From: Tricharina praecox
Lineage: Eukaryota
Reading direction: 5' to 3'
Length of the DNA stretch: 64,000 bases
Assembly (NCBI RefSeq): GCF_024521635.1
Contig: NW_026250407.1
Span: 1,240,001 to 1,304,000, forward strand
The position numbers and the translations under genes were made by a program. Below the pieces are notes generated by a model, which was given only the letters and a program-made list of their open reading frames with translations, was not told the DNA's origin and ran no database searches. Of this stretch, positions 1,017-60,109 are shown piece after piece (the first letter of the stretch is position 1; the number at the start of each line of letters is the position of its first letter).

Positions 1017-2557
1017 CGTGATGGGTGCGGAGGTGGAGGGGCTGGGGAACCGGGAGAGATTAGAGAGATGTTGGGTGGTGGTCGTGGGAGGTGGTGGTTG
1101 TGGCGGTGGTGGTGGTGGAGGTGGGGGGGGGGTTGACGTTGAATGGAGCTGTGCTGTAGGGGGAAGTGCTAAAGACACTGGTGGCACCTACATACGTCCT
1201 ACCTACATACATATGATTCATGCTTACCCCAGGCTACTTTGGTGATGCTCGCGCTTCAGAGACCCACAGATCGTACACCGCCGACGAGCCGACACCTGGT
1301 GATGTTTTAGCGGCGTCTGTAGAACTCCATAAACGAGATGAACCATGCTCGCTTTTAATTCCAGAACTTCCATCCAGGTTTCCCCATTCCCCAGACTTGT
1401 GCTCCATATCTATCCGCTCATCCTCCTCCTCCTGCTCCTCCCCCTCCTCCTCCTCCATCATCCGCCCGTCCCACTACTCCCACTCTACTCAGACCAGCTT
1501 CTCCTCCCTTACGATCCACTTGATCCCTCACGATCACCGGTATCATGTACTCCATTCTACTTCAGCCCTCGCCGACACACCAAAGTGGCCATCTCCCAAG
1601 CCTTCTTGGAGCACAGCTTGCCCAGCATAGCTGCGCTTCGGATTCGGGCCTTCCGGTAAAGAAAGAATGCGAAGAAAGAAAGGCCACAACCACCACCACA
1701 ACCACTCCCACCACCCATCCCTCCCACCTGGCACCACCTGTTTGGGTTCGCAGTCTATTCGCCCTCGCATTTCCAATGCCATTAGTATTTTCTGGCTGTC
1801 AATCACCGCAACAACAACACCCCATCGGTGATCTCTTCCGTTTGTAGAGACAATAGTTCTTTTTCCCCTCGGATGGTTCTTTCGATTACTCTTCCTTCGA
1901 CTGCGCTTCTACACCGACATCAATCGATCCATCACCACCCTGCCGACCCCTCTCGCTTCGCCGTCGCCGTCTGCACTGCGGTAATCTAATCAGCAGCCTG
2001 TGAGTTAGTACTCCTCTCTGCCTACATATCCGGCTACCTATCAAGGTGTGTACGCGCATCTCTTCATGCGGGCCTTGCAAACAGATGAACGGAGTCAACA
2101 TCCCGTGCCGAAAAGTTGTCTGCCTTGCACCCGCGCTTCTGCCATATCCTGCCCCCCCTCCCCGCCGCCGCACCGCATCCACAACTCAAAGCCCCCAACC
2201 CAACCACCCCCCCTCCCTCCATCTCCGACGATCCCCACCGTATTCGTATTAATTCCAACAAACTACCCTGAACTCTCGCAAGGGAAAGAACCGTGAGCAC
2301 TGAGCCTGACTAGACTACCAGTACTAGAGTGGAGCCCTATCTACCTACTCGAGCAGATATCATCCAACCCACAAGCTTCGCTTGCGAGTGTCCGGTCATC
2401 ACACCTCACCGACACCCGCACACGCACTCGCTGGGAATACACAAGAAAACAGTGCATGCGGAGTTACCACGGTCTCTCTTCTCCTGCCTCCGCCGCCGCC
2501 GCCGCCGCGCCTTGATACCCCGCAACAGTCCGAGAGCGGCTCCCACGCAACCGAACC

Positions 2558-4410
2558 ATGTCGGAATCGATGGATCGCGACGAGCGGCGCGATAGCAAAA
2601 TCTCGCTCGAGGAACCGATCGTGAGGTCCGACACGGCGGGCAGCGGTGCAATAACCCCCATGAGCTTGGAGGAGGGTCGCATGAACGGTGTGGACGTGAG
2701 TCGAACGAGTGGACCCGTATCCGAGGCGTCGTCGCCGGTGCGAGGCCGCGAGGCTGATTGAAGCTCGTCTGCGTGTGCACAGTTGTCGAAATTCACGGTG
2801 AGCGCTTTCGGCGACGACCTCTTCGATTCGGTGACGCCGGAAAACAGAAGTCTGCTGTGGAAGCAGGATCTACGGATCGTGCCGCTGTCGGCCTTCATCT
2901 ACCTCCTCTGCTACCTCGACCGCTCGAACATCGGGAACGCGCGCATCATGAACCTCGACGACGGCAATGATCTGGAGTCGGAGTTGAACATCACCGACGA
3001 CAAGTACATCATCTCGCTGATGCTGTTTCTGATCGCATATGCGCTGTTCGAGGTCCCGTCGAATTACTTTCTCAAGGCTGTGTCGCCGAGCGTATGCACA
3101 CCCCGTCAACGCGCTGAGCGGAAAAGAAAAAGACCAGGAACTGATGAGTGCAGAAATGGATTGCATTCTTGATGATGAGCTGGGGGGCCGTTACCATCGG
3201 CACCGGAGGTGTCAGGAATTATCCCGGGCTCGTGGCTACGCGGTTCTTGCTGGGCGTCTTCGAGGCCGGCTTGTTTCCCGGGCTGGTGTACTACCTCACC
3301 TTCTGGTACCGCTCCGACGAGAGGAGTTTGCGCGTGGCGCTCATCATGGCGAGTTCGACGTTGGCGGGCGCCTTCGGAGGTGCTATTGCTTACGGTGAGC
3401 CCATGGAGATCGACGCTTTGGGTGCGGACGTCATTGCTGACCGTGGTACAAGGGATTTCGTTTATGAATAAAGTGGGAGGACTCGAGGCGTGGCGCTGGC
3501 TTTTCATCCTGGGTACGATGTCTCGCTCCATCACTCGGGTGCTATGGTACTGACATCGGTCTAGAGGGTATTCCGTCTTGTCTCTCCGCCATCGCCGTCT
3601 ACTACTATCTCCCGGATTATCCGGAGACTTCAAGTTGGCTCTCTTCGGAGGAGGCACGTTTGGCAGACCAGCGTCTGGCCTTTAATGGATCCAAGGGAAG
3701 CTCCGCTTCCATGACCTGGAAGGAATCGAAAGCAGTCCTTCGAGATTGGCGGTTGTACATTCACTACCTGGTGTGTATCCCCCCGTCCACCGCTTCGTGT
3801 ACTCCACTTGCTAACCGGCCACAAGATCTACTTCGCCTCCTCCGTGCCTTTCTCCTCGCTGTCTCTCTTCGCGCCCTCGATCGTCGACGGTCTCGGCTAC
3901 TCCTCGCTCCAGGCGCAGCTCATGACGATTCCACCGTGGGCCGTCTCCTACGTCGTCACCGTCCTCGTCGCCTTCTCCTCCGACCGCTTCAACGCGCGCG
4001 CAACGCATGCAGCGGCATCGATGCTCTTCGCCGCCGTCGGCTTCCTCGTATCCGCGATCCTCCCACCGGGCAGCTACCTCGCGCGCTACATAATGCTGAT
4101 CGTCGCATGCTCGGGCTCCTTCGCCTGCATCGCGCCACTCCTTGGCTGGATCACCGGTAACCTGCATTCGACGTCTGCCGCCGGTCTCGCAATCGCCCTC
4201 AACGTGAGCTTTGGCGCGCCAGGCCAAATCGTCGGCGTGTGGATATACCGCAGCGAAGAACAGGAGCGCGGGTATCCCACGGGTCACTGGGTCAACGTTG
4301 GCATGCTGCTCCTGGGCTCGATGTGCGTGCTCGGCCTGCGGTGGTGGTATATGCGCGAGAATGAGAGGATCCGGAAGGGTAGTGTTGATAAGCCGCTGTG
4401 GAAGCTGTAA
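2558..4410 (+). CDS. MFS transporter, anion:cation symporter family (allantoate/nicotinate permease-like)
   Basis: Motifs DLRIVP, YLDRSNIGNAR, FEVPSN, RFLLGVFEAGLFPG, WRWLFILEGIP. Frame-consistent introns at 2696-2782, 3092-3153, 3395-3452, 3513-3564, 3771-3825. Confidence 0.92.
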
Positions 4411-7400
4411 GGGAGGGAAAGGGGGTGCGCTGTGAAGTTGATTTGATACCCTGGGCATTTTCGGCGGTGTGGTTTCTTTTGTCGTTCCTTTGTTCTCTCT
4501 CTGTTCTTTTGGATGCATGGCGGTACGCACGGATACCTAGGGTACGAGGTATGTTTTTTTACTTGCTTTTTCTATGCGTGTATGTACCTACTGGTCTTGT
4601 CTTTCCTTTTCTCTTCTCTTCTCTTCAATGACATAAGGGGGCGATGTGGTTGTTCTGGTTTCTGGTTTCTTGTTGCTTGTCTCTGGTTGCTTGTTGCTTG
4701 TTGCTGGGGTGTTGGTGCGATGAGAAATGAGGAAACGGTGAACGGTGAATGGAACGGAGTGGTGAATGGAACGAGAGTACCTAAGTCATTGCCACCTACA
4801 GTACCAAAAAACCAGGTGTATCCGGAACGCTAGCGCTGCGGTCCTCCTACCGCCCTTCGACTTATTGCGCATTGTAGTTTAGAATGCCGCGCTATGACGG
4901 CTGTCTCAGGATTACGTTGCTAAAAGACAACCGAACTGTAGTTTTGGTGCGTAGTGAAATGATTTTTCAGATCTCAATTACCCTGTAGTAAGACCATACG
5001 GCTACCGCTCTTACCTCACTGCGTATTCTTTTAAATGCCAGAGAACTACCGCACTACTCTGGTAGTGTTGATGCAGCTGCACTCAGCAGGCAACCAGTTT
5101 TTGGCGACAACCGCAGTCGAAGGATGACGTTGTCCAAAAACTCCGGCACCGCTACCAGATCTCAGCGGTTTTCTAAAGAAGGGGAAGTTAAACAACAACA
5201 GTACCATTCCCATAGCGGGGCCACTTTATTTGCTTTTCGTAGCCGCAAAACAACCGGATTGCAGTTAACTTGCCGTACCAGTGCCGTACCAGTGCCAGTA
5301 AGGGTCCTCAAAATCACTGGAGAAGCAGCTGGCTGGACTTTAGCGTGCCTAAACGGGGACGGAGGTGTAGTGGAAATTCAGTGTGATTGGCCGACGTAAC
5401 AGAATGCGGTAAACTAGAGAAAAAACCCGTCATCACCAAGAATGCCACATAGCTACCGCAATTGAATTATATTCAGTATTAACAACCTGGGACGTAATAT
5501 AGTAAGTATGGCATCACTATGGGAGATTTTGGATTATGCATTCAGAAGATCAAAATTTTCAGATAATAACCGTGGTCTCTTTCATCCCAGTAGCGGTACG
5601 GCAGACATCAAATAGCCGTACCATAACCGTAGCAATGTGAACTGGCTGTTTCCTACTGTAACTATGTTGGAGGGCGGGGCTCACATCCAGTGGGTTTCAA
5701 CCGAAGCCTTGAGACACGTGAGGCAGGATCTGGGAGCTAAGATGGTTACTTGAGCCGTGACTACAGTTCTTCTACTCGTCGTCTCTCTCGTATTTCTCGC
5801 CGGCGCAAGAGTTGTGGTCCGGTTCTGGTACCTACTCAACTCGGCAAGAGTCAAGACTGGTGACTTGTAAATTTGCGTGAGTGACGCTGCATGTCTTGCT
5901 GGGCCGAAGTCGAAGTCCAAACCGAAGTCCAAACCCTACGGTTAGGTAGGTGTCTTCTCGTGCTAAGTGCGAAGTTCGAACGTTACCGCACCCTTGTACT
6001 AGTACCGCACAATCTAGAGGCATGGAGCTGAAGTATGAAGCATGGAGCATGAATCATGAAGTATGAAGCATGAAGTATGAAGATGTCTGCTAGAGCATAT
6101 ACAAAGCTGGTGGATTTACGGCGGGGATTTGGGGGTTGGATTGCTGCCGACGAAATCTCTCGCAATATACTCCGGCTTAGACCGGAGTACTCCAGTGGCA
6201 GCCTGGCAGGCCCGGAGTGCAACTGGCGGTCTTGCGTCACAGAGCTGAAGATGTCTAACAGGAACAGGAACCGGCCCGCCTATGGTATTGTTCGAACGAG
6301 GGTGGCAGTCGGTGATTCCGAATTTCCAAGCCGCGACTATCAAGACGACTTGGATCGATCCCGATCCCGATCCCGACACCTTCGGCTGTTTAGAAAAAAG
6401 TGATAGTCCGATGCGGAACAGGATGTAAGCGCGAGTGCACACTCGTGAAGCTAGGGAGCTACTAGTAGGGAGCTAGCGAACGACCGTTCTCGTTCTCGTT
6501 CTCGTACTCGCTACATCTGACACAGCACAGCACTAGGGAGCTTCCCGTCTGCTCAGTGCTCACACCACGTCGCCGAAGAAGAAGCCTTCAGGTTTGCTGG
6601 GTAGCACACCCGCAAACCCAGCTTGCAGGCCCGTTCGAGTAGGTATAGTACTGGGTCAACTCTCACTCGGGACGGTAGATACATCTCCACGCTTCTCGAC
6701 GCTTCGCCGAGGGTGCCAGTACCGTCCCGTCCCATCTCATCCGGTCTTCCCCTTTCACATAAAGGCACAATACCTACCTACCTACTGTAGTCTGCGTGTG
6801 CAATTGTACGAGTATGTGCCTATGTAGGTACTTGCTTCAGGTGGTGAGCAAGAATATGATGCTTTTAACATACCATCTGCTAGGCTGTTTTGACTTTCTG
6901 CTGGCCGGAAGTACAAGTACCAGCGCCGTATCTTTCAAGCAAGTGCGCACAGTTAGACGGTTCCCGAGTCAGCCACCCATGATGCAGCCATCCATGATTT
7001 ATCACTCGGTTTATTTTCTGAAGTAGCGTGATTGAAGATGTACTTTGGCACACTCTATCTACATCTCTCTTTGCGGATACGAGAGTCTGCTTTGATAGGT
7101 TATATTCATATGTATTGTTTCCGTCTTTGCAATACCAGCACTACTACCAGATCGTTGCGTGGGTATATATTCAGACAATCACCCTACCAGCGCCACCCAG
7201 CCTGTCCGATGCAATGCCCACGCAACCATCTGGCAGTACATACAGCGACCCACACCGCCCATCGGTCTTCCCGTCGAGCGCAGGAAGGAAGGAAGGAAGG
7301 CAAGAACCCTGCATACAGACAGACAGACAGCCAGACCGACGGCCCTCAGCTCAGCTGCGTGAGTACACAAGTAGAGTGCCGGTATGTTGTATGTTGTGTG

Positions 7401-31314: not shown

Positions 31315-33861
31315 CTACGAAGCATACCTCCATTGGCCGCTCTTCCTAGCGCCATGATGTAGATGAGCATCGCTAGCGCGGTGGGCCCTTCTAGCCGCGG
31401 AGACTGTCGGCGGCACTGGCGCGACATAGTCCTTTTCGTACTGCTCCTGATAGGTGTAGTCCCTGATATCCTTCTCCGGCTTGCTGGATCTTGGTAGTTG
31501 TTGATCCCTATTAGGCGGAGGGCCGCGGCTAGGATCCCTGGGGTGATGATAGGCGGCAGCGGCGGCGGCGGAGGAGTTCGAGGGGTGGTGCGGGGTGGTA
31601 GCCCTAGTCGGCGGACTGGGGTCTTCATATCTGCTCAGCGCCCACATATTAGTCTTCTCTTCGACGGTGTATTCGAGTACTGGCGGTGCCGGCGGCGGCG
31701 ACGCGCCGTATCCAATAACGTGCAGTGACTCATACAATCCATCGCCCTCGTATTTCCGCCCGTAGCCGTCGTACTTGACGTCGTCGTAATCGTCGTCGCT
31801 GTAGCGGTCCGGGCTGTCGTCGCGCCGCCGCCGCACGCTGCGGCCCCGCTTCGCCGCGTGCCGTGCAGATGAGTCTTTGGCCGAGCCGCCCTTGGGCTTG
31901 ACGCTACGTGAGCGCGTGGGCGGCCGCGGTGGCTCCTCGCCTAGCGTCGGCCGCGGGTTGACCTCGTCCCGTCTGGCGTCTTCCCTCCAGCCGGGGGGAG
32001 GCCCGGGGGGAGCGGGGGAGTAGGGAGAACGGTATCGGTCGACTGGAGAGTTGTCTTTCTCCTCGGCGGTCAAGAAGTCCTGAGGGTCGGGGACGACGTT
32101 GGTGGTGGAGTATGGGCGCGAAGTGCGTTTCCGTGTGAGGGAGGGGGGAGCGGGCGATGGAGGATCCTTCGGGCCGTTGTCCTCCGGCGGAGTATCCGAC
32201 GGCCCGTCTCCGCGGACGGAATATCCTCTCCTCCTCGGCTTCTCCGGCTCGGGGAGGCCTAGAGGAACCTTACGCTCATCGTCCGAGTCCTGTGATTCCT
32301 CAGGATAGTCCTCGCGGACGGCTTGCCACCAGCCCTGATAGATAGCACGATCCTCCGTTTGGGGAAAGCATTCCCGAGGAATCATCTTGGGCATCTCGGT
32401 CCCCTGGTCGAAGATGGTCCACTGGTCCAAGACCCGAGAAATACGGTGCCATTCGCGGTGCGGCGCCGTCATCAACTGGGTGAACATCCACACCTCGAAT
32501 CCGCGAGGCGTAAGCCCGGGCAGAGTGGGAGGCTGGTTCGGCTTGGTGGGCACTAGATGATGTTCGACATTAAGGGCACAGAAGAGCTCGGACAGGATCT
32601 TGGGAGAACGCAAGTTGAAGAATCCTGCGAGACCGGTTAGGCAAAAGAATTATAAAAAAGAAAAGAAAAAAAGAAAGAAAACAATCGACGGGATGACAAA
32701 CGTTGCCACTCAGACTCTTCACCCTCTCCTACGGCAAAGGTATTGTAGAACTGAATCAACTTTCCCAGAGTCACCACGCAGCTCTGCGTAGGCTCCAATA
32801 ACGCAACCTATCGCAGCGTTAGTGTCCACTCACTCTCACATTCCTGCCTCAGCGATCGTGTGACATACCATGTAAGCGGCGATTCCGCGGAAAAGCGCGA
32901 CCAGCTTCGGCTTCGGCCTCGGCTCGCGTCCAGGTGCGACCTCAACCAACGGGCCACCCCACAGTTCCCAGGCATGTGCCATGTCATGGGACTTGTTGCT
33001 TCCGAACGACATCTCGGACATCTGCGCGGACACTTTCCTCGCCGGTTCCGGGCGTCCCGACGGAGCCGGAGCCGGCGTTTTAGATGGTGGTGGTGGGGCG
33101 GGTGCCGGCGGCGGGGCCGGGGCCTCGGGTGCGAAAGCTCCGGGCATCGGCCCCGGCGCTGGGGTCTTCGACTTGGGCGGCGGGTGGAGAGGTGGGTGGC
33201 CGCGGCCTTGCGATGGCGGGGGAGCCGGCGCGGGGGGAGGGGGGGATACCTCGCCGCTGTGTGACGATGGGCCGGGCCGGCCGTAGTGGTAGCCGTAAGG
33301 GGGATAACCGTAGTGCATGGGCGGACCCCTAGCCGAGTGCGGGACCCCGTGTGGCGGTGGCATGCCCATCGAAGTGTCGATCCGGGGCGGAGGCGAGCTA
33401 GGGGGTGGAGGAGCCGGCATTGCCGGCACGGCGGGCGCCGGTGCGGGCGACGCGGTCTTGCCCATCTTGAGCCGGTTGAGCTGGTCGATCATGCCCTGGA
33501 GCTGTTCGGGCGACATGTCGTTGAACGGCGCTGGGCTGGCCGAGGGCGCGGGAGCAGGCGGCGGGCCGGGAGGCGGAGGTGCAGGCGGCATCGGTGGGTA
33601 GTCGAGAGGCGGGGGATGGCCGCTGCCTGGCGTGGGAGGAGGACCGGCGCTTGGCGGAGGCATGCCATAGTAGTGGGCGCCGGGCGGCGGGGCATACTGC
33701 GACGGGCTCGGAAACGGGGCGGTAGTATGCGGTCTCGCGGGGGAAGGGCCCGGTGATTGCGGAGGAGGAGGATGGGGGGGGTATCCGGCGGGAGGGTAGC
33801 CGGGCGGGCCATAATAGGAGGCGCGAGCGGGGTCATAGGGGGGGTAGCCGGCATAACTCAT
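31315..33861 (-). CDS. Proline-rich fungal protein with a conserved central domain (resembles DUF7514-type proteins)
   Basis: Introns 32808-32868 and 32625-32701 join a Pro-rich N-terminus to ...PGLTPRGFEVWM...APHREWHRI...MPKMIPRECFP. Family call is from memory of the motif. Confidence 0.8.
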
Positions 33862-41822: not shown

Positions 41823-43804
41823 ATGAGTCTCCACGACCTATCGGAACGGCACTCGTCAACCCACACGGGCGGGGATGGCAAAGGGACCGGAACCTGGCAC
41901 TGGGGATACGGCTGGCAAACAGTGCCGTGTGTGGGCGTCGAGGCGTACTGTGGGTACATGGATTTGTACTTTAACATGCACGATCTGACCATGCTATACA
42001 CGTACGTACCTGCGGTTGTTTGTCTCCCCCGTGGGGTTGGATGCAACTGACATGGGGGGTGTGATCAAGGTTTTTCCTGTGGTGGGTTGTCGCTGGCCTT
42101 GTTCTCGCGGTTGGGGCGTTACGATTCTGGGCGAGGAGAAAGAGCGCGGCTGGGACAGTGGATGTGGAGGGTCGCAGATGTGGAAAAGGAGGTGTGGTGA
42201 AGGCGCTCCGTGCGAGTATTGTCGCGGCGAGGAGGAGGGGACTGAGGCAGGGGTTTTTACTGGGGACGTTTAAGGGCGTGACGAGGGTTCAGATCACGGT
42301 CTTGGTTATGGTGGTGATATACCTTGCTATATTCTCGTTTGTGCCCCGATTATTCTACTCCAGCGTGGAGTAGTACCTACCGATGGCTGAACGTTGCGAG
42401 GACAGTTTCATCGGCGGGACGTACAACAAAGTAATCCAGGAAGCTACAAAGAAGCGTACCGAACTCGGCTGGTGGTCTAATCGGGTCGGCTCGCTCGCCT
42501 TCGCGCTGACGCCGCTGACACTGATCCTCTCGATGCGGGAGAACATCTTCTCGCTGATCACCGGAATTCCGCACCAGCACTTCAACTTCATGCACCGGGT
42601 CCTTGGCTGGATCATCTTCGCACAGAGCCTTCTTCACACAATCGGCTGGACAGTCGTGCAGGGTTACTTCTTCGAGCCACAGACGCAGCCGCAGTATCTG
42701 GCGATCCAGTGGAAGGAGCGCTACTACAAGTGGGGGTTCGTCGCGCAGATGCTCCTGGCGTTTCTGTGGGTCGGGAGTCTATCCCCGGTCGTGCGGAGGA
42801 TCGGCCACGAGGCGTTCCGGAAGAGCCACTATGTCCTAGCCGTGTTGTACCTGGGCGGCTGCTGGGGCCACTGGCCGGAGATGAAGGAGTGGATGATTGC
42901 CAGTATCGTGGTGTTTTTTTTCGATCGCGGGTGCAGGTTTCTCCGGATCACGCTCATTCACTGCGGGATGAAATCCAAGACTGCCGGCTTTGGGTTCAAG
43001 TACGCGGCTGCTAAGACCGTGACGGAAACGGACGCCGATGGGACACATGTCGTCGTGTTGAGACTCCTCGCGAAGCCGCTGCACTACGTTCCCGGCCAGC
43101 ACTTCTTCCTCACGTTCCCGAGTATCACCCTTCTACAGTCGCACCCGTTCACCCCCGCTGTCGTCAATGGCCACGAGCAGGTGTACGTGATCGTCGGGAT
43201 GGCAGGAGAAACGGGCCGATTAGTGGAAGCGGCACGAGCCGGAAGTGAAGGGGGACTACCAGTGATTCTATGTGGACCGTACGGTTCCCCGCGGGTGATC
43301 GACAATGGCGCGGAAAACTTCCTACTCGTGGCAGGAGGAACAGGAGTATCATTTACACTTCCCCTACTGGCGGCTTTGGTCGAGAAGAAGACAGCCGGAA
43401 AGCTCCACTTCGTGTGGATCATCCGCCGACTAGAGAATCTGGCCTGGATCCGTGCAGAGCTATTAGCATTAATCGATACGGCACTCAACAGTAAGCTTAC
43501 GCTTCAGGTGGTTATTTATATCACCAGAGATGGCGAGGCGGTGGCCCCGACGTTGAGCGAGACAGATAGTACGCATGGACTGGAGAAGTATGCTGCCTAT
43601 GGCCGTCCTATGTGCAAGGAAGTTGTGGCGGCGTTTAGGGAGAGTACCGCTGGTGGCGGTAGATCCCAGGTGCTAGCAAGTGGGCCTGCAGGAATGGGGA
43701 GGGAATTGAGGGACGCAGTCGCAGAATCAAACGACGCAGCGAAGGTGTGGAGGGGTCAGGAAGCGTCGGATGTGGGCCTGTACTGGGATAGCCGGTATTG
43801 GTGA
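41823..43804 (+). CDS. Ferric/cupric reductase-like transmembrane flavocytochrome (FRE/NOX family)
   Basis: Heme His pairs (HRVLG...LLHT; SHY...WGH), HPFT FAD motif, GPYG, AGGTG NADPH motif. Introns ~42002-42069 and ~42336-42405. Start is ATG 41823 (alternative 41721). Confidence 0.88.
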
Positions 43805-45464: not shown

Positions 45465-48056
45465 TGTGCGATGCTGTGAGTGAGATTGGTGCCGCGTTGG
45501 TGAGGTGAAGTGGGGTGTAACTTAGAGTGGGAGGCGTAGCAAGTCCAGTTACACACGCGTGACGACAAGCTTTGGCTGGCCAAGACCACTAGCTTGTGGT
45601 TAGCGTGAACCTAAGATTGGAGCTATTTAGCGAGTGAGATTGTGTGAGGCTTCGTGTTTTTGGTTCCGGAGGCTAGTTAATTAACAAGGCACGCCTCATA
45701 GTTTCGAGTATGGAGAAGACGGCAGTCAGGTCCCAGTCGCAATATATCTACCTCGGCATGGCCATTTGCGCATTCATCCCAGCCACATGTGCTACAGCTA
45801 CGATTTCAATATGCATTCCGCATCAGCAGCCAAGGTGGATTTCACTCATGGTGGTATTTCGTGAATCCACAGTTGAGAATGATGCATGCATGCAGATCGT
45901 TTTCGGAGCCTCGGCACTGACAAAATGTGCCGTCAACACCCTATGGGGTGGTAACTGAAGACACTTCAGTGGCTGAGTGAAAGAACTGACATAAGTGGCA
46001 GAGTGTCTCTCCGATATCACAGCTACCGCCTAATACAGTAGTTCTAGGGCTACTATATACTATGACAGTATTAGACGTTAATCTGCTCTCGTAAATTCTG
46101 GACATTGGTACACTCAGGCATTTGCCTACTCTCAGTTCAATATGACTTTCGAACATTCATTATCATCTGTTTGGTGAGCTCGAGTTGACAATTATTCCTC
46201 TTTATAGGTTCTATGATATATTTCTCCATATGCGATATGAATTATGTCTTTAGAAGTCAACAATCTGCTGGATATACTCTACTGCACGAGTGAGACCTGT
46301 GAGGCACATACTTTGAAGAGCCGTCCGCCAGCCGTCCTCCAGCCGCGGCCAGCCGCGGCCAGTTTCTACGTGCATATCTTCTGGAAGCCAAATTCCCGAT
46401 CTTCTCCGCCACAATTTTACGTATCCGGCATTCCATTGCTGGTCATGAGGTCCTCAACTAGGAGCTGAAGCGCTGTGTCGATAACCGCAGCGATCCACTG
46501 CCAAACTCCCCCGCTATTGATATTCCTACAGGGCCCAGCGATACCGAATATAAACTAAGTATATACGGAGATATAGGCACATAAGATATGTACATGGACG
46601 TTGGAGTCCGGTAGTGGATGTCCCGCCATTCCCATGCCTGTTCCGGAGTTCTGGGTAGGATTATAGTAGCTGTGCATATGGTTGTGGAGAAACCCTGTAT
46701 AATAACGTCCTACTCTAGTGTAACCCCTCCCCAAAAAGCAGATGAAAGTTTTAGATACAGACGTCGCTGGCTGGAGGGACCATCGGGCTTTTTCCGCGTC
46801 AGGAACTAAACTGTTAATATGTTCGGTTGTGGAGGCTGCGGCGACCGAGTGATTTCCAGTGGAACGCTGTCCTCCGGCCTCAGATGACGAAACGTCATGT
46901 GTTGGACTGCGCAATCGGCGACAAAGCGACGATTCGGACCTGCATCCAGCCACTATCTATATTAGTAGTCCCGATCTCCGACCCACACCAATCTCTGTAT
47001 GATGTCTCATCCCGCCCAAGACCTGACCTCGGATTGCAGCATCAGAACGTTCCTAGCGTATTGGAACGTGGTTGGGACAGCGGTAAACATGACGCCCAGA
47101 CAAGTGTTTCCTAACCCGAGGAGACCTTTCCTCAATGACCGAGCGAATATCTAGCACCTTGTACGAAGTCTCTATATCTGGCTTCTAGGTCAGTCAATCA
47201 TGCCCCGCACATTGACGTGGATTTCCCCACCATGGTGGCCGCAAACCCTAGATGATCGGAATTCCTCATTGCAATTAATCGCATGCCAGAGTAATTTTTC
47301 CTATACATCTCATTGCTCAACAGCTGACTGATGATGCCTCGAGATGCGACCTACTGATGGACCGCCGCAGTATCGAGCCCCGCCATTTCTCTGCATTCAC
47401 CAACGGAACGGATTTCGTTTTCGCTTTTTCCCAGTGGGGCTCCCGGATGGTCGGTGCGCGGTGGTGATCTCCGAAAATACATAGTGAACCCAGGTCGCGG
47501 GGATCGACAGGGGGCCGTGACCGGAGCTTTTTGATCCCCTGATCTCCCTGTTAACTTTGATGATATGTATCGCGCCGAGGTTCTTTACCCTGCACTCACC
47601 GTACATCACCCACCCACCCTTAACGAGAAACAAGATGTCTTATCCAAATCCTTCAGATTAATACCTACGATATCGAAAAAACCATTCCCGGATCGACGAC
47701 ACCACAAGGATCCATCTTGCGGGGAGAGTGCACGGTGTCACCGAGGCTCACGGTAGCCGTCGCCTACGTTTGAGGGCTTTGCTTGCGGCCGGTGATATTG
47801 ACCGACGCCGAAGCTGGGGGGGTATGAAACGTACCTTTACCAGATCGCAAGGCTTTTGCAATATGTTTTTTCTTCTTGGAGGCGATAAAATTCAGAGAGC
47901 AATACATAAACACAGACGTCCACCCGGTTGGATTTCTGGACGTCAAGCGGATCTGCCTGCCTTCCATTCATTCTCTTGTTTGTCCATTCACTCCTTAGCA
48001 TTTGTGTTTTCCATCGAAAGATCCCGGTGATATTGATTCGGCTATCTAGTGCCATC

Positions 48057-51000
48057 ATGAAGCTCTCTGCATTATTACTTCTTACAGCGCTGCAGCTAGC
48101 AGTTGGTAGGCCTCAAGACGGCCATGATCACGAACATACGACCACTACTCAGACCCCGACGGTGAGCGGTACTGAACCGTCTACTACTCGGACTCCGACG
48201 GCGAGCGGTACTGAACCGGCAACAGTACCTTCGCCAATTGGAGCAGCTCCCAGCGATTGCAAAGCCATCTCCACCGACTCGACATGGCCTACTGTCTCGG
48301 TTTGGACTGCTGCTCTTCCCGGTATCGAGGCCAAGCATGTGGAGGATGTCGGGCGGCCGGACTACTTCTACACGGCGACAAATGCGACAGGCGTTCAGGC
48401 TGCAGTCAAGTTTGCTGCCGCGAACAACCTGCGATTGGTAGTCGTCAACAGTGGACATGATTTCCTGGGAAGGTTGGCTGGTTACCGTTGTCCTTCATTG
48501 TTCCCAAATGACTTGTCGCTAACGCAATGCAGGAATGATGCCCCCTCGGGATTGAGCCTTGATATTAGCAAGTTGACTGGTGTAAATGTTCTTACATCTT
48601 TCACTCCCGGAACCACCGGTGCCACTAGCCCCAGCCCATCTGCTGCCGCCAACGTGGTTAAGCCTGTCGCTGGCCAGCAGGCAGCTGTTACTTTCGGTGC
48701 CGGAGTGAGTACGCAGGCCTTAAACGACGCCATTGCCGCTTCTGGACTCTTCACGCTTGGTGCTGCTCACGGTGAGCTCTCCCACGAACCCCATGTCTCT
48801 CTCTATTTCGTCGTTGACAGGAAACAGGTAGTGTCAAGACCGCCGGAGGATGGGGACAGGCTGGTGGTCATGCACCACTCTCTAGCAAGTATGGTCTCGG
48901 CGTGGACCAGGTTTTGGAGTACAAGGTCGTCACCGCGGACGGCAAACTGGTCATCGCCAACTCCAAGACGAATACCGATCTTTTCTGGGCCCTGAGGGGA
49001 GGAGGAGGATCCACATTCGGTGTGGTCGTCGAAGCCACCGTGAAGGCGTACCCATCACCCACGGTCACTGTGACGAACTGGTGGATCAATGCCACCGATG
49101 CCGCAAACCCCGGCCAGGGATTCTGGGACGCCGCCGCCTACCTTCACAGCCAGTTCCCAGCGCTCAATGCCAAGGGCGTCCAGGGGTACTACTATGTCTA
49201 CCCAGCCGCCATGAAGGGTATCTTTCTCACCGCCGACACTGACGCCGGAGAGGCCATCTCCAAGGCTCTCTGGGACCCTGTCCTTACGAAGCTCGGATCG
49301 TACTCCGGTATGTTCAATGCTACCATCAAATTTAACGACTACGCCAACTACAAGGCGTACTTTGATGCCCGCTTTGGGGCCGAGCATGACGATGGCGGAC
49401 ATGAGCACAAGAGGTGGTTGGAGAAGAGACACGGCGATATGACCGAGCCCATGGGAATCACCCCCATGGATAGCCGTCTCCTGGGACAAACCGCCCTACA
49501 GAGCACCGGCTTGGCTGCCGCCCTCAAGGCTGCCATGCCCCAGGTTCCCGATGGACAGCTCCGTGGTCATCTTGTCGGTGGTGGAAAGGTTATGACGTCG
49601 ACCGAGGACACTTCCGTCCTTCCCGCGTGGCGAAAGGCCTACGTCCATCTCATCGGAACCGGTGTTGGACTCGTCAAGACCGACTCCCTCAGGACCTTGG
49701 CTCCCGACATGGGTGCATACGTCAACGAGGCGTCCTCCACCAACCCCAACTGGAAGACCGACTTCTGGGGGACCAACTACGCAAAGCTCTCGACGATCAA
49801 GACCAAGTACGATCCCACGGGCGTCTTCTGGGCCACTCCCGGGATCAACGCGGACCAATGGGCCGTCAAGGACGGCCGTCTCTGCAAGTCCACAACGTCT
49901 TCCGATGCCGTGGCTCCCGCCAACGACAACAAGAACTACGCCACGCGCGGCTCCTCCAACGAGGACATCCTGTCCGCCTTCCCCGGAACCTCAACCGCCC
50001 CCGGCCATGACCACGGTGATGAGGGCGAGAACTGCGAGGAGGATCCGCACTCTGGACACGACGAGATCCCCGCGGGTTTCATCCAGGAGCCCGACCTCGA
50101 CTATCGGCAGACGCCTACCACTCCCGGCGCCACCTTCACCAAGACCCGCCATGGCCCCTATAACATGGACGCCATGGGCATGATCGCGAACCGCCCCATC
50201 ATCAGCCCGCAGAAGCCGTGCAGCAATTGCTACGTCGTTGCGCTCCAGGCCGGACTCGAGTACGCCGATGGCACCCCTGCGAACGTCGATACCGGCGCGT
50301 GGCTCCATCATATGGTCCTCGTCAACGCCGGCACCGGAAAGTATGATCTCGTCTGTGGACGTCCGTCCCCGAAGCGTCTGTATGCCGCCGGTAACGAGCG
50401 CACCACGTCCCGTATCAACGGCTCGGGCAAGTACGGATTGGCCATCGCTTCTTCGGATAGGCTCATGATGATCATGGAGTTGATGAACGAGTCTAACGTC
50501 GCAATGACCGTGTACCTGACCATGGTAAGCCCTCCTTCTCCTCTGAGATCCCCCCATCCGACTTCAAACTGACAAATAAAGACCTACGAGTGGATCCCGA
50601 TGTCCACATCCGGCTACAAAGAAGCGCACACGGCCTGGCTCGACGTCGGCAACTGCGGGGGCTCCGACGTGCCAGCAAAGGAGGGCGTATTCGAGCTCAA
50701 GTCCAACGGGTGGCGGTCCACCGTTGCGGGCCGGCTGCTATTCGCGAGCGGGCACGTGCACGACGGCGGGCACGAGACAGCGATCTTGCTCAACGGAAAG
50801 GAGATCTGCGTGTCGCGCCAGCTGTACGGGATGAAGCCCGGCTATACCGTGCCCGAGGGCGGCCTTCCTGGCGGCAGCGGCCATGACGACGGCGGACATG
50901 GACATGAAGCTTCGAAACATATCTCGACCTCGGGCATCTGCAAGGACTATGGCACTGTTAATGTTGGTGATACCTTAACCGTTGTGGCGAGGTATAATAC

Positions 51001-51082
51001 TACCATGCACCCGCTCATGCCTGGACATGATGGTACGCCGCATCCGATTATGGGTATCTCAAGGACGTACATCGGACCGTAG
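48057..51082 (+). CDS. Secreted FAD-linked (BBE/VAO-type) oxidoreductase fused to a C-terminal putative copper-monooxygenase-like domain
   Basis: Signal peptide; NSGHDFLGR, DLFWALRGGGGSTFGVV, AYVNEA...FWGTNYAKL..IKTKYDP. The same exon runs without a stop into a domain with WLHHMV, GNERT, GHVHDGG and HPIMG. Introns 48473-48532, 48772-48827, 50525-50581. Confidence 0.85.
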
Positions 51083-51178
51083 GGTGTGGGTTGGGGGTAG
51101 CGGGGCTGTTGAACAGCTGGTTGACATTGAGGTTTTGATATTTCTTTTGTGTGACTGGAATTGATTGGCATTCGAGTT

Positions 51179-51209
<31 letters not shown>

Positions 51210-51785
51210 GGATTGTTCATATGTATGTAGGGGGAGACTTCAATCAATAACTACTCAGTCGAATAGGGCTGGTTCGAATGATTCCATGTTGAGGTGCTCC
51301 GCGATGCTTTGAATAATCTTCCCAGAGATGAAGCGTGAAGGTGATACTCCGGCTCAATCATTACCCCCCTCCCCCAGCCGTTTGCTCGTAGGATCCCGTT
51401 GAAGTCTCGAGTCTTGAGTCGGTTATAACCGTTGCAGATCGGAAGTCACTACCGTCGAGTTCGACAACCGGGCCATCCGAGCACCCGCCATGATATGGAG
51501 AAACACAAGTCTTTAGGTATCGTAAAGTACATCATTTTAAGCAGCCATCAGATCATCACAAGTGAGTAGTAGTTACAGCGAAAGAAATCTCGAGTATCGC
51601 CTCCTTTCCCCCACATTATGAAGTAATTCCCAGAAAACGCCGCCGCCAGAATAAAGGAAAAAAACGTAAACATTGATTTCGTAACCATCATTTCATGTTT
51701 CATTCGTAACTTCATTTTCTACCTCCATCCCCCCTAATAGTTATTCGTTCGTGGGTCGATACGTGTATGTAGGTATGCTATTCGC

Positions 51786-58892: not shown

Positions 58893-59443
58893 ACGACACC
58901 CGGATTAGAAATTCTACTTCTTGATCGACCGAATCGTTTCGACTTTGCTATCGGGGTGCTTTGGGGGTATGATTTCCCCCAACCCTTCGGGGAGGTAAGT
59001 TGCCACTTCGTATCACTACCGCGGCTTATGTAGCTAACCAACCAGTTCGACCAGATGTTGTCTGAGTGCGTCTCAGCGGCCACTGACCAGCCCCATGAGG
59101 GCCGTTATACGCAGCCGCGGCCCGTCGTCGCTGCCGATAACCAACCGGGGTTCGCGCCGGCATCGGGGCGAATGATTTCCCCCCTCCCTTCGGGGAACGT
59201 ACCACAGTGGGGGGAATAGTTTCCCCCCCTCCCTTCGGGGACGTAAGTTGCCAGTTGGTATCCAACCCACAACAATTGCTTCGAAATCTCTGCCTGTCCC
59301 ATCAATATGCAGCTAATACATTGGGTTCTACACAGACAACGGGACTGGGACTAGGAAGCGTCGGGGAGGAGGCAAGGGAGGTTAAACGAGGATGTGAAGG
59401 AGGGCTTAGTGATAATCATCATGTGCGGGGTCCGAAGTCGGCG

Positions 59444-59572
59444 GAGACTCTAGAGAGTATGGCCACCCTTGCCAAGGCTCTTGCTGCCAAAGACTACAAC
59501 ACCGCGGGTAACATCCAGGTGAATTTGTTGACCAACAAGACCGCCGAGTGCACACAATGGATGACGGGAGTC
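59444..59572 (+). pseudogene. SEC31: Fragment of the COPII subunit Sec31 C-terminal domain
   Basis: ETLESMATLAKALAAKDYNTAGNIQVNLLTNKTAECTQWMTGV resembles the conserved Sec31/SRA1 C-terminus, and it is absent at the homologous site in copies A, B and D. Confidence 0.72.
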
Positions 59573-60109
59573 ATCTTGAAAATAATATCTTGATTTCTGT
59601 GTTTGTTCATTTGAATCAGTCTCCAAGTTAGCGGGGTAGTGATGGTGCCGCTCATTCATCTGCCTTCTCGTTCCCTGGGATGTCTTTGTGTGTTGGGCAC
59701 CATCTGATCTCGACAATGGTGGGTGGAGGACAGTCGAGAGTCGATACCTTCATACCTGCATTGTACGTTTTGTCCGATTAACACCTCACGATCAGGTAAG
59801 TACCTACATACACACCTCCATAATACTTCTCACTTGAGCAAAACTTTTTTTGTTTAATCAGTGATTGCTTGCGACCTATGTAAGTATGTAGATCATGACA
59901 AGATATTTACACACTCCGGTTCCACGTCATTGCCCAACCCGATAGTCATCAAGCGGCCCAATGTGAATTTCACGCCCTCCGGCTCGGCCTGTCCTAGCTA
60001 CGAAGACACTTCTACGTAATCAAGTAAGTAGGTACCCGCTGGTTAATCCCTCCGCATATCGTCTGCGATTCACCACCATGTATGTATCTAAAATAGAACC
60101 CGCCTACCA

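Follow-up and report, generated by a model that had tools for sequence, protein, structure and literature searches.

A VAO/BBE-type flavoenzyme fused to a Nod19-family domain with a predicted PHM-like fold in Tricharina praecox: a candidate self-reducing flavo-copper oxidoreductase

Introduction

Peptidylglycine alpha-hydroxylating monooxygenase (PHM) and dopamine beta-hydroxylase (DBH; both Pfam PF01082 plus PF03712), the makers of amidated hormones and noradrenaline, are the standard examples of non-coupled binuclear copper monooxygenases, described chiefly from animals and dependent on ascorbate. Here we describe a gene of the harmless saprobic cup fungus Tricharina praecox, located at 48057..51082 of a 64,000-nt stretch of contig NW_026250407.1 (positions 1,240,001 to 1,304,000, forward strand; hereafter the window, to which all positions refer), that joins a predicted secreted VAO/BBE-type flavoenzyme to a Nod19-family domain with a predicted PHM-like fold in one polypeptide.

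The closest solved relatives of the flavoenzyme half are two enzymes of Myceliophthora thermophila, one with monocovalent histidyl-FAD (flavin adenine dinucleotide) and the other with bicovalent FAD; the reduced forms of both react fast with O2, nearly no substrate is known for the pair, and low activity on ricinoleic acid has been reported (PMC6017366). On the side of the C-terminal half, an AlphaFold model of a plant Nod19/MtN19 protein has been published without naming a related fold (PMC10326430). In bean, Nod19 has been validated as a target of miR398b; it falls in copper deficiency and rises in copper excess along with Cu/Zn superoxide dismutase (PMC3882225).

On the reading that we prefer, and to which we give a roughly even chance, the fusion would be a self-reducing flavo-copper oxidoreductase in which the flavin domain supplies a copper-type C-terminal domain. 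The alternatives are weighed below beside the observations that bear on them.

Results

Both domains are encoded in one open frame

Read from the DNA, the gene has four exons and a product of 950 amino acids (aa), with the frame intact over 950 codons up to a single, terminal stop:

48057..51082, plus strand: whole gene, predicted secreted VAO/BBE flavoenzyme plus Nod19-family domain of predicted PHM fold (DNA reading, translation)
48057, plus strand: start ATG (DNA reading)
48057..48472, plus strand: exon 1, encoding a hydrophobic signal-like peptide (MKLSALLLLTALQLAV), then a His- and Thr/Ser/Pro-rich stretch and the first part of FAD_binding_4 (translation)
48106..48225, plus strand: 120-nt in-frame segment GRPQDGHDHEH...TEPAT, His- and Thr/Ser/Pro-rich, after the signal-like peptide; an intron in the public model P0001
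48473..48532, plus strand: intron 1, 60 nt, GT..AG, in frame
48533..48771, plus strand: exon 2
48772..48827, plus strand: intron 2, 56 nt, GTGAGC..CAG; its junction AAHG/SV is validated by alignment to 6f74
48828..50524, plus strand: exon 3, a single open frame that runs from the remaining flavin domain through the linker into the C-terminal domain, of which it encodes the first half
50525..50581, plus strand: intron 3, 57 nt, GTAAGC..AAG
50582..51082, plus strand: exon 4, stop codon included
51080-51082, plus strand: stop TAG (DNA reading)

The signal-like peptide of exon 1 predicts secretion. All three introns have GT..AG ends and branch-like CTAAC/TGAC motifs, and the exon 3/4 junction (..LTM/TYEW..) is contiguous in intron-independent homologues. 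Exon 3 is open over 565 codons (the raw open reading frame, ORF, inside it has 556 codons, 48902-50572), and both the BBE motif of the flavin domain, matched by PF08031 at E 2e-13, and the WLHHMVL of the C-terminal domain lie within it without interruption, so the fusion does not depend on splice prediction. An earlier reading of the same DNA (the original prediction) had described a BBE/VAO enzyme that continues into a second domain within one exon, and the shared exon 3 bears this out; exon 4, beyond the 57-nt intron, carries the further motifs SGHVHDGG and HPIMG.

The public model of the protein, P0001 ("hypothetical protein BZA05DRAFT_434459", 910 aa, Tricharina praecox), is 100% identical to the region and differs from our model solely in the 120 nt near the N-terminus, which it splices out. 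This segment is probably coding, and the annotated intron in P0001 probably wrong, because the three Onygenales orthologues described below and the P0004 protein keep His- and Thr/Ser/Pro-rich segments there. Residue numbers in the following are those of P0001.

The N-terminal domain is a VAO/BBE-type flavoenzyme

By sequence comparison the N-terminal domain is a VAO/BBE-type flavoenzyme with one predicted histidyl FAD site and no predicted cysteinyl site. Its recognised elements, together with the linker that follows them, are:

48357..48955, plus strand: FAD_binding_4 (PF01565), residues 61-221, E 7e-20, split by introns 1 and 2 (Pfam)
48456..48458, plus strand: His codon of NSGHDF (H94), predicted 8-alpha-histidyl FAD attachment site, aligned to "tGHD" of 6f74
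49382..49438, plus strand: His-rich loop with two Lys-Arg pairs (EHDDGGHEHKRWLEKRHGD; H-x-H-K-R-x-x-x-K-R-H), an insert in the flavin domain
49715..49846, plus strand: BBE motif (PF08031), residues 475-518, E 4e-13 (Pfam)
49892..50098, plus strand: linker, residues ~534-602 (~65 residues)

On P0001 the FAD_binding_4 match scores 71.6 bits against a cut-off of 26.4, and the BBE match 49.6 bits against 20.6. Among solved structures, phmmer brings out two VAO-type oxidases as closest, 6f74 and 6f72 (E 4e-44 over query residues 61-532), and the alignment to 6f74 crosses the intron-2 junction unbroken. We take the His of the NSGHDF/SGHD motif to mark covalent FAD attachment. The Cys of bicovalent FAD, which normally sits in the AAHGSV region, is absent from ..GAAHGSVKTAGGW.. 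and ..AAHGSVKTAGGW.. in the alignment of that region to 6f74, as the original prediction had noticed, and the lack of a second link groups the protein with the monocovalent VAO/BBE members.

All three Onygenales orthologues have the His-rich loop at 49382-49438, and 6f74 lacks it; it may serve for Kex2-type processing or for binding metal.

The C-terminal domain is a divergent member of the Nod19/MtN19 superfamily

The C-terminal domain occupies the remainder of the protein:

50099..51079, plus strand: Nod19-family domain, residues ~603-910 (~310 aa), predicted to form two beta-sandwiches, with intron 3 inside

Exon 4 alone matches PF07712 ("stress up-regulated Nod 19") at E 0.0055, under the cut-off, and the whole domain scores 13.9-16 bits, below the gathering score of 25. 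A word-indexed search with the part of the domain encoded in exon 3 matched 43 proteins, mostly stand-alone and 320-430 aa long, among them a paralogue from the same fungus (P0006, 380 aa), proteins of Venturia inaequalis and one actinomycete protein. In an alignment of the domain with 40 relatives (41 sequences, hereafter A1), PF07712 is matched at E <= 0.1 by 38 of the 41, the best reaching E 6e-6. An exhaustive hidden Markov model search with A1 recovered 2,608 representative clusters at E <= 0.001, of which 1,529 pass 1e-10 and 525 pass 1e-30; the bacterial relatives that this profile brings up reach 26-44 bits against PF07712, above its cut-off. Neighbours in the ESM Atlas, by features and structure, are all PF07712 clusters (template modelling score 0.73-0.81) from plants, Ascomycota and Actinomycetota. 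By these profile and structure comparisons the domain is a divergent member of the Nod19/MtN19 superfamily, lying outside the curated PF07712 family.

Many bacterial Nod19-like proteins seem to carry an N-terminal extension of ~250 aa without a Pfam match (for example L017, L029, L031, L033, L038, L039, L057, L062 and L076, of 556-601 aa, and P0167, P0176 and P0183). It could be a novel domain or could reflect starts called too far upstream in high-GC DNA.

The predicted fold is closest to PHM and DBH

An AlphaFold2 model of the C-terminal domain, computed with A1 as input, is all-beta with two sandwiches (mean predicted local distance difference test score, pLDDT, 88.1; predicted template modelling score 0.85). 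Values below 50 are confined to the linker (residues 1-31 of the 352-residue piece) and to a loop (residues 284-294) of which orthologues have a similar one:

50873..50905, plus strand: disordered His/Asp/Gly-rich loop, pLDDT <50

Searched against the PDB with Foldseek, the model has human DBH (4zel) as its top matches, at E 5.4e-9 and 1.9e-8, followed by about thirty PHM entries at E ~3e-7 to 1e-4 with probability 1.0; a PNGase F-type entry (7zgn) is matched at E 2e-5. VIA-align, a structure search independent of Foldseek and run over 48,161 chains, likewise places PHM first (1sdw, Z 13.6, 225 aligned residues, root-mean-square deviation 4.7; 5wm0, Z 12.9), then DBH (Z 11.6), with PNGase-type proteins as runners-up (Z 8.2, 7.9, 7.8 and 7.6). 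Among solved structures the modelled fold is closest to PHM/DBH, and in the AlphaFold and Foldseek comparison set beforehand PHM/DBH rank above PNGase F.

The PNGase matches (Z 7.6-8.2, and 7zgn in Foldseek) are the ground for an alternative in which there is no redox coupling and the C-terminal domain is a glycan- or peptide-directed binding or hydrolytic module of the PHM/PNGase F class, serving in targeting or in a separate step of a pathway. The linker has pLDDT 33-41 over its modelled part (residues 559-588), with several short stretches and one Cys common to orthologues. Docking of the flavin domain to the C-terminal domain, predicted without controls, scored 0.00, which gives no sign of domain contact and bears neither way. 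The alternative is countered by the gap between PHM/DBH (Z 13.6-11.6) and the PNGases (about 8), by the invariant His and Met residues at PHM ligand positions, and by the linkage of relatives to four or five unrelated types of electron donor, both described below. We consider it improbable, and prefer the self-reducing flavo-copper oxidoreductase.

Conserved His and Met residues align with the PHM copper ligands

Conservation was counted over 167 aligned rows, comprising the C-terminal domain and 166 relatives. The putative ligands are:

50306..50311, plus strand: HH (H672, H673), each in 167/167 rows; corresponds to PHM H107/H108 via the bacterial HH
50477..50485, plus strand: E-L-M (E729, M731), Glu/Asp in 160/167 and Met in 147/167
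50753..50761, plus strand: HxH (H802, H804), each in 166/167; corresponds to PHM H242/H244 via the bacterial GHxHxxG
50918..50920, plus strand: H857 of a "HIS" motif, in 145/167
51050..51052, plus strand: M901 of ..IMGI.., in 158/167 (5 gaps); corresponds to PHM M314 via the Met of the bacterial "..DEMC"

A GNER motif is found in ~162 of the 167 rows and four Cys in 161-166 of them. For the motifs singled out by the original prediction (WLHHMVL, SGHVHDGG and HPIMG), which contain the HH, the HxH and the C-terminal Met, this conservation is far beyond chance.

The correspondence to PHM was drawn through bacterial proteins. Five weak matches emerged when 401 Actinomycetota genomes were searched with PF01082, and these served as a PHM-like bridge; they are proteins of 534-801 aa in which weak matches to Cu2_monooxygen and Cu2_monoox_C come after a cytochrome c domain. 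Aligned to PHM, one of them places HH on ..VHHM.. and Q-x-H on ..QVH.., which in PHM numbering are H107/H108 and, for the His of QVH, H172 (PMC12164859). Aligned locally with hhalign to the five bacterial proteins, A1 matched over the HxH strand only (E 6e-4, probability 28%). Larger profiles (a query built from the domain and 166 relatives of 270-480 aa, 112 of them kept, and a template of 70 of the 120 listed bacterial relatives) gave E 4.8e-4 and probability 32% over 232 columns, and trimming the template to its PHM-like part gave E 3.1e-4 and probability 39% over 246 columns. HxH is paired with HxH in all three runs, the Met is paired with that of DEMC in the trimmed run, and the pairings are mutually consistent. 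M901 and M314 also share their register at the end of the structural alignment, each lying nine residues before it (model residue 352, chain residue 323). The weak E-values gain weight only because the fold match agrees.

Invariant HH, HxH and Met thus stand at the positions of the PHM CuH His pair and of the CuM His2Met set, two sites that lie about 11 A apart in PHM. At the CuM site, HxH and Met are both present at the aligned positions, on a weak alignment. At the CuH site, which in PHM has three His, HH is present and Glu/Asp stands in place of the third His, with Met at +2: E729 pairs with the first His of the bacterial "HYH", the position of PHM H172, and M731, two residues further on the same strand, pairs with the second His and has no PHM equivalent. 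The original prediction had found the third CuH His not evident, and the aligned position indeed holds Glu/Asp in 160 of the 167 rows. PHM H172A keeps two bound copper ions (PMC12164859), so the missing third His is no argument against copper at the H-site.

A pair of His with a Glu/Asp is also the composition of a 2-His-1-carboxylate set, and the domain might hold non-haem iron (or Mn or Zn) at this site, with chemistry unlike that of PHM. The ferric reductases that adjoin relatives (below) fit such a metal as well. The second site is nevertheless His2Met, typical of Cu(I) (PMC12164859), a conserved Met flanks the first, and plant Nod19 is under the copper-economy microRNA miR398 (PMC3882225), all of which count against a metal other than copper; we regard that alternative as distinctly improbable, more so than the absence of redox coupling, and keep copper in the preferred flavo-copper reading.

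The fusion is conserved in other fungi

Full-length fusions are present in three Onygenales (P0190, 962 aa; P0191 from Helicocarpus griseus, 940 aa; P0192 from Malbranchea cinnamomea, 929 aa), with 60-62% identity to P0001 across both domains and parts of the linker, and with the same Pfam domains. Both parts are also present in P0004 of Choiromyces venosus, whose model of 585 aa is evidently incomplete, and in the metagenome fragment P0002. The orthologues also keep three low-complexity segments rich in His. In a 41-row tree of the C-terminal domain the six fused domains fall in one 22-row clade (support 95/90), within which the Onygenales and P0002 form a clade with support 100/99. The fused state needs 3 changes on this tree; the starred branches permit 1, and the tree fits one origin or several alike.

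The RNA contigs found over the locus are antisense

The check for RNA used two contig sets, guessed to be of RNA origin (0.86 and 0.83 of sampled words). Contigs of two runs, aligned to the locus, show one transcript:

48015..51170, minus strand: spliced antisense transcript (contigs aligned to the locus)

Its introns, with minus-strand GT..AG ends (CT..AC joints on the plus strand) and lengths of 57-58 nt, lie at 48429-48485, 50516-50573 and 50947-51003, two of the three overlapping sense introns. The spliced antisense RNA has no Met-initiated ORF longer than 186 aa; perhaps it is read-through from a convergent gene at ~51.8-52.6 kb. The RNA contigs break at 51171-51220, a short way past the stop codon, where a (GT)n run gives way to about 25 G.

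With contigs that are antisense only, the sense gene model rests on homology. An artefactual fusion, either of two genes or at a decaying locus without sense expression, would agree with these contigs, which are spliced on the minus strand and retain the sense introns, and among which no sense mRNA appears. Contigs, however, show presence and not absence; the junction lies within an exon open for 565 codons, the frame is intact over 950 codons, and the same architecture and linker recur in three Onygenales at 60-62% identity. An artefact is in our view very improbable.

Relatives are linked to electron-delivering proteins

Electron-donor partners of stand-alone and fused relatives were sought in fungi, in metagenomes and in bacteria. 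The predicted protein P0107 (1,018 aa, from one contig) has an N-terminal Nod19-like domain, an acidic Ser-rich linker and a complete ferric reductase with Ferric_reduct (E 9e-22), FAD_binding_8 and NAD_binding_6 (Pfam). On metagenome contig L099 (GC content 0.49, probably of fungal origin), a ferric-reductase gene (1261-3388, minus strand) and a Nod19-like gene (4311-5276, plus strand) stand head-to-head ~0.9 kb apart; their identities to the corresponding halves of P0107 are 37-43%. Among 79 metagenome loci searched for partners, L099 alone had one (FRE); most of these contigs are too short to include neighbours.

Bacterial neighbourhoods were surveyed in the best 80 of 143 confirmed loci (from 173 candidate stretches), mostly of Actinomycetota, by Pfam on 94 predicted ORFs from 20 loci and by tblastn across the 80:

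PQQ-dependent dehydrogenase, directly downstream: 4/80 (L015, L020, L035, L059)
PepSY_TM protein, directly downstream: 6/80 (L011, L040, L043, L052, L064, L068)
DoxX, directly downstream: 5/80 (L002, L003, L007, L008, L009)
DoxX_2, nearby: 4/80 (L001, L005, L006, L013)
DUF4396 neighbour: 4/80 (L019, L034, L037, L055)
195-aa ORF without a known family: 6/80 (L001, L004, L005, L006, L010, L013)

An apparent Nod19-PQQ fusion at L035 was rejected, as the ORF is in the wrong frame and the locus holds two adjacent genes. In one Atlas cluster PF07712 is combined with a cupredoxin domain (PF00127) in 38% of 61 members; no such fusion was found in the 22 long bacterial ORFs scanned, and the cluster is a lead only. 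The recurrent linkage of stand-alone relatives to electron-delivering proteins suggests that the family depends on an external source of electrons.

The same partners admit an alternative of metal handling, in which the Nod19-like domain would capture extracellular copper or iron with its His-rich loops and the flavin domain would reduce the metal for uptake or loading. FRE and PepSY_TM are partners of metalloreductase types; known PepSY_TM proteins are haem-dependent periplasmic reductases, of ferrisiderophores, and CrpH supports copper-dependent oxidases (PMC13038864). The three conserved His-rich low-complexity segments of the orthologues and the tracking of copper supply by plant Nod19 through miR398 (PMC3882225) fit this alternative too. 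Yet a His2X/His2Met pair on a PHM fold is the arrangement of a catalytic oxygenase, a simple shuttle would hardly be expected to pair with PQQ dehydrogenases or a BBE-type oxidase, and GNER, in ~162 of the 167 rows, suggests a substrate pocket. Metal handling is the most serious of the alternatives, still unlikely, and catalysis by a self-reducing flavo-copper oxidoreductase remains the reading that we favour.

The bacterial cytochrome c-PHM-like proteins used as a bridge form a family in their own right (L081-L085, P0195-P0314), with 766 relatives at E <= 1e-5, many labelled Ilumatobacter or Acidimicrobiales. They sometimes include a YceI domain, and their weak two-part PHM-like region has HH, HYH, HxH and DEMC motifs. 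By sequence, the members of the L081-L085 family resemble PHM-type copper enzymes that carry their own haem donor.

Other genes of the window

Upstream of the fusion gene the window holds a ferric reductase:

42374..43801, plus strand: ferric-reductase (FRE/NOX-type) gene, main exon; Ferric_reduct E 5e-26, FAD_binding_8, NAD_binding_6 (Pfam)

It lies 4.2 kb from the fusion gene on the same strand, with a likely upstream exon at ~42065-42373. An orthologous relation to the P0107 reductase was considered and rejected, identity being 23%. Between the two genes, from 43.9 to 48.0 kb (GC ~0.49), there is no ORF with a Pfam match. Among 21 large ORFs scanned from 31 to 64 kb, matches at Pfam E <= 0.001 are limited to the ferric reductase, a DUF7514 ORF and a weak SRA1:

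31318-32649, minus strand: DUF7514 ORF, E 3e-25
59141-59590: weak SRA1 match

Discussion

In the preferred reading, the C-terminal domain would bind two metal ions, most likely copper, and would carry out an O2- or H2O2-dependent oxidation of an extracellular substrate. The flavin domain would oxidise an alcohol- or sugar-type donor and supply the copper domain, either with electrons passed to the HH site across the flexible linker or with locally produced H2O2, so that an ascorbate-like external reductant would be unnecessary. In this fungal lineage the electron partner would have been acquired in cis, as a VAO/BBE flavoenzyme. In its boldest version, the flavin domain would re-oxidise the alcohol made by the copper domain, for a net R-H + O2 -> R=O + H2O.

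Several observations weigh against this reading. At the level of sequence, the link between the C-terminal domain and PHM is weak, with hhalign probabilities of 28-39%; none of the 41 A1 sequences matches PF01082 or PF03712 at E <= 0.1, and sequence searches of the PDB with exon 4 and with the A1 profile return no chain at E <= 10. The ligand pairing derives from profile alignments and end register, and the geometry of the proposed sites is putative. The His-His plus Glu/Asp site resembles a 2-His-1-carboxylate iron site equally well, and the three Onygenales fusion proteins carry Ser in place of H857, which therefore cannot be an obligatory ligand. Most of the 80 bacterial loci have no recognised redox neighbour, and the counts of those that do are not independent, as the hosts are related Actinomycetota. 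With 23% identity between the window ferric reductase and that of P0107, the adjacency in the window may be chance. Sense mRNA was not seen among the two contig sets, whose contigs are antisense and retain the sense introns. The function of Nod19/MtN19 proteins themselves is described as unknown or elusive (PMC9632046, PMC10326430).

The simplest account of the wider pattern is that the Nod19 superfamily is a PHM-related, metal-dependent redox family, most likely of copper enzymes, which is extracytoplasmic and receives its electrons from partners. A stronger claim, that Nod19/MtN19 is a third, kingdom-spanning branch of the PHM-type two-copper oxygenases, always with a dedicated electron donor and with the fusion as its self-sufficient form, is tentative, and we hold it clearly less probable than the reading of the fusion itself. 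Were Nod19 to share PHM chemistry, a testable function would follow for the plant "stress nodulins", for secreted proteins of plant-pathogenic fungi (Venturia) and for hundreds of actinomycete proteins, and the targeting of Nod19 by a copper-economy microRNA would be simply explained. The fusion would then be an experimental handle, a single polypeptide that supplies its own electrons and has the flavin as a visible reporter, and a C-H oxidising enzyme that needs no added reductant would be of interest to biocatalysis.

The original prediction had proposed a possible self-sufficient extracellular flavo-cupro enzyme. The architecture has since gained a PHM-like fold, aligned His and Met residues and a conserved fusion, while copper and coupling remain predictions. 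Membership in Nod19/MtN19, the Glu/Asp and Met in place of the third His, and the repeated linkage to electron donors go beyond it. Among the papers listed in searches of the open literature, none links Nod19/MtN19 to PHM or describes a BBE-Nod19 fusion; InterPro, Gene3D and SUPERFAMILY may already assign the fold. What appears to be new, judging from alignments and models, is a PHM-type scaffold whose H-site is altered, combined with a flavin donor in the same chain.

Comparison with known systems

Like the C-terminal domain as modelled, PHM and DBH have a fold of two beta-sandwiches, with HH on a strand of the first and HxH and a C-terminal Met in the second; like the fusion, they belong to the secretory pathway or extracellular space and presumably use two electrons per turnover. 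Unlike them, the C-terminal domain has no significant PF01082 or PF03712 match and has Glu/Asp and Met where the third CuH His would be, and its family has an additional conserved H857, the GNER motif and a His-rich loop. The family is found in fungi, plants and Actinomycetota, whereas PHM and DBH are mainly animal enzymes. We know of no plant Nod19 that is fused to a flavoenzyme. Plant Nod19/MtN19 proteins belong to the same superfamily as the C-terminal domain, but stand alone and carry a C-terminal hydrophobic helix (PMC10326430). The fusion carries its flavin oxidase with it, whereas PHM and DBH rely on ascorbate (PMC12164859).

The nearest flavoenzymes, MtVAO713 and MtVAO615 of Myceliophthora thermophila (6f74 and 6f72/6f73), share the His of the FAD motif with the N-terminal domain, and MtVAO713 likewise has no Cys for a second FAD link (PMC6017366). 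In contrast to the fusion, they end where its linker begins and are without the His-rich Lys-Arg loop.

The bacterial cytochrome c-PHM-like proteins resemble the window fusion in joining a PHM-type domain to a built-in donor (of one electron), and differ from it in that this donor is a c-type cytochrome, that they match PF01082/PF03712 and that they keep the third His (HYH). In idea the fusion also resembles the AA7 oligosaccharide dehydrogenases and cellobiose dehydrogenase that act with lytic polysaccharide monooxygenases (LPMOs), where an extracellular flavin enzyme supplies electrons or H2O2 to an extracellular copper oxygenase (PMC8035211). The LPMO systems, however, consist of separate proteins with a histidine-brace copper enzyme of unrelated fold, whereas the fusion would combine its flavin donor with a PHM-like domain in one polypeptide.

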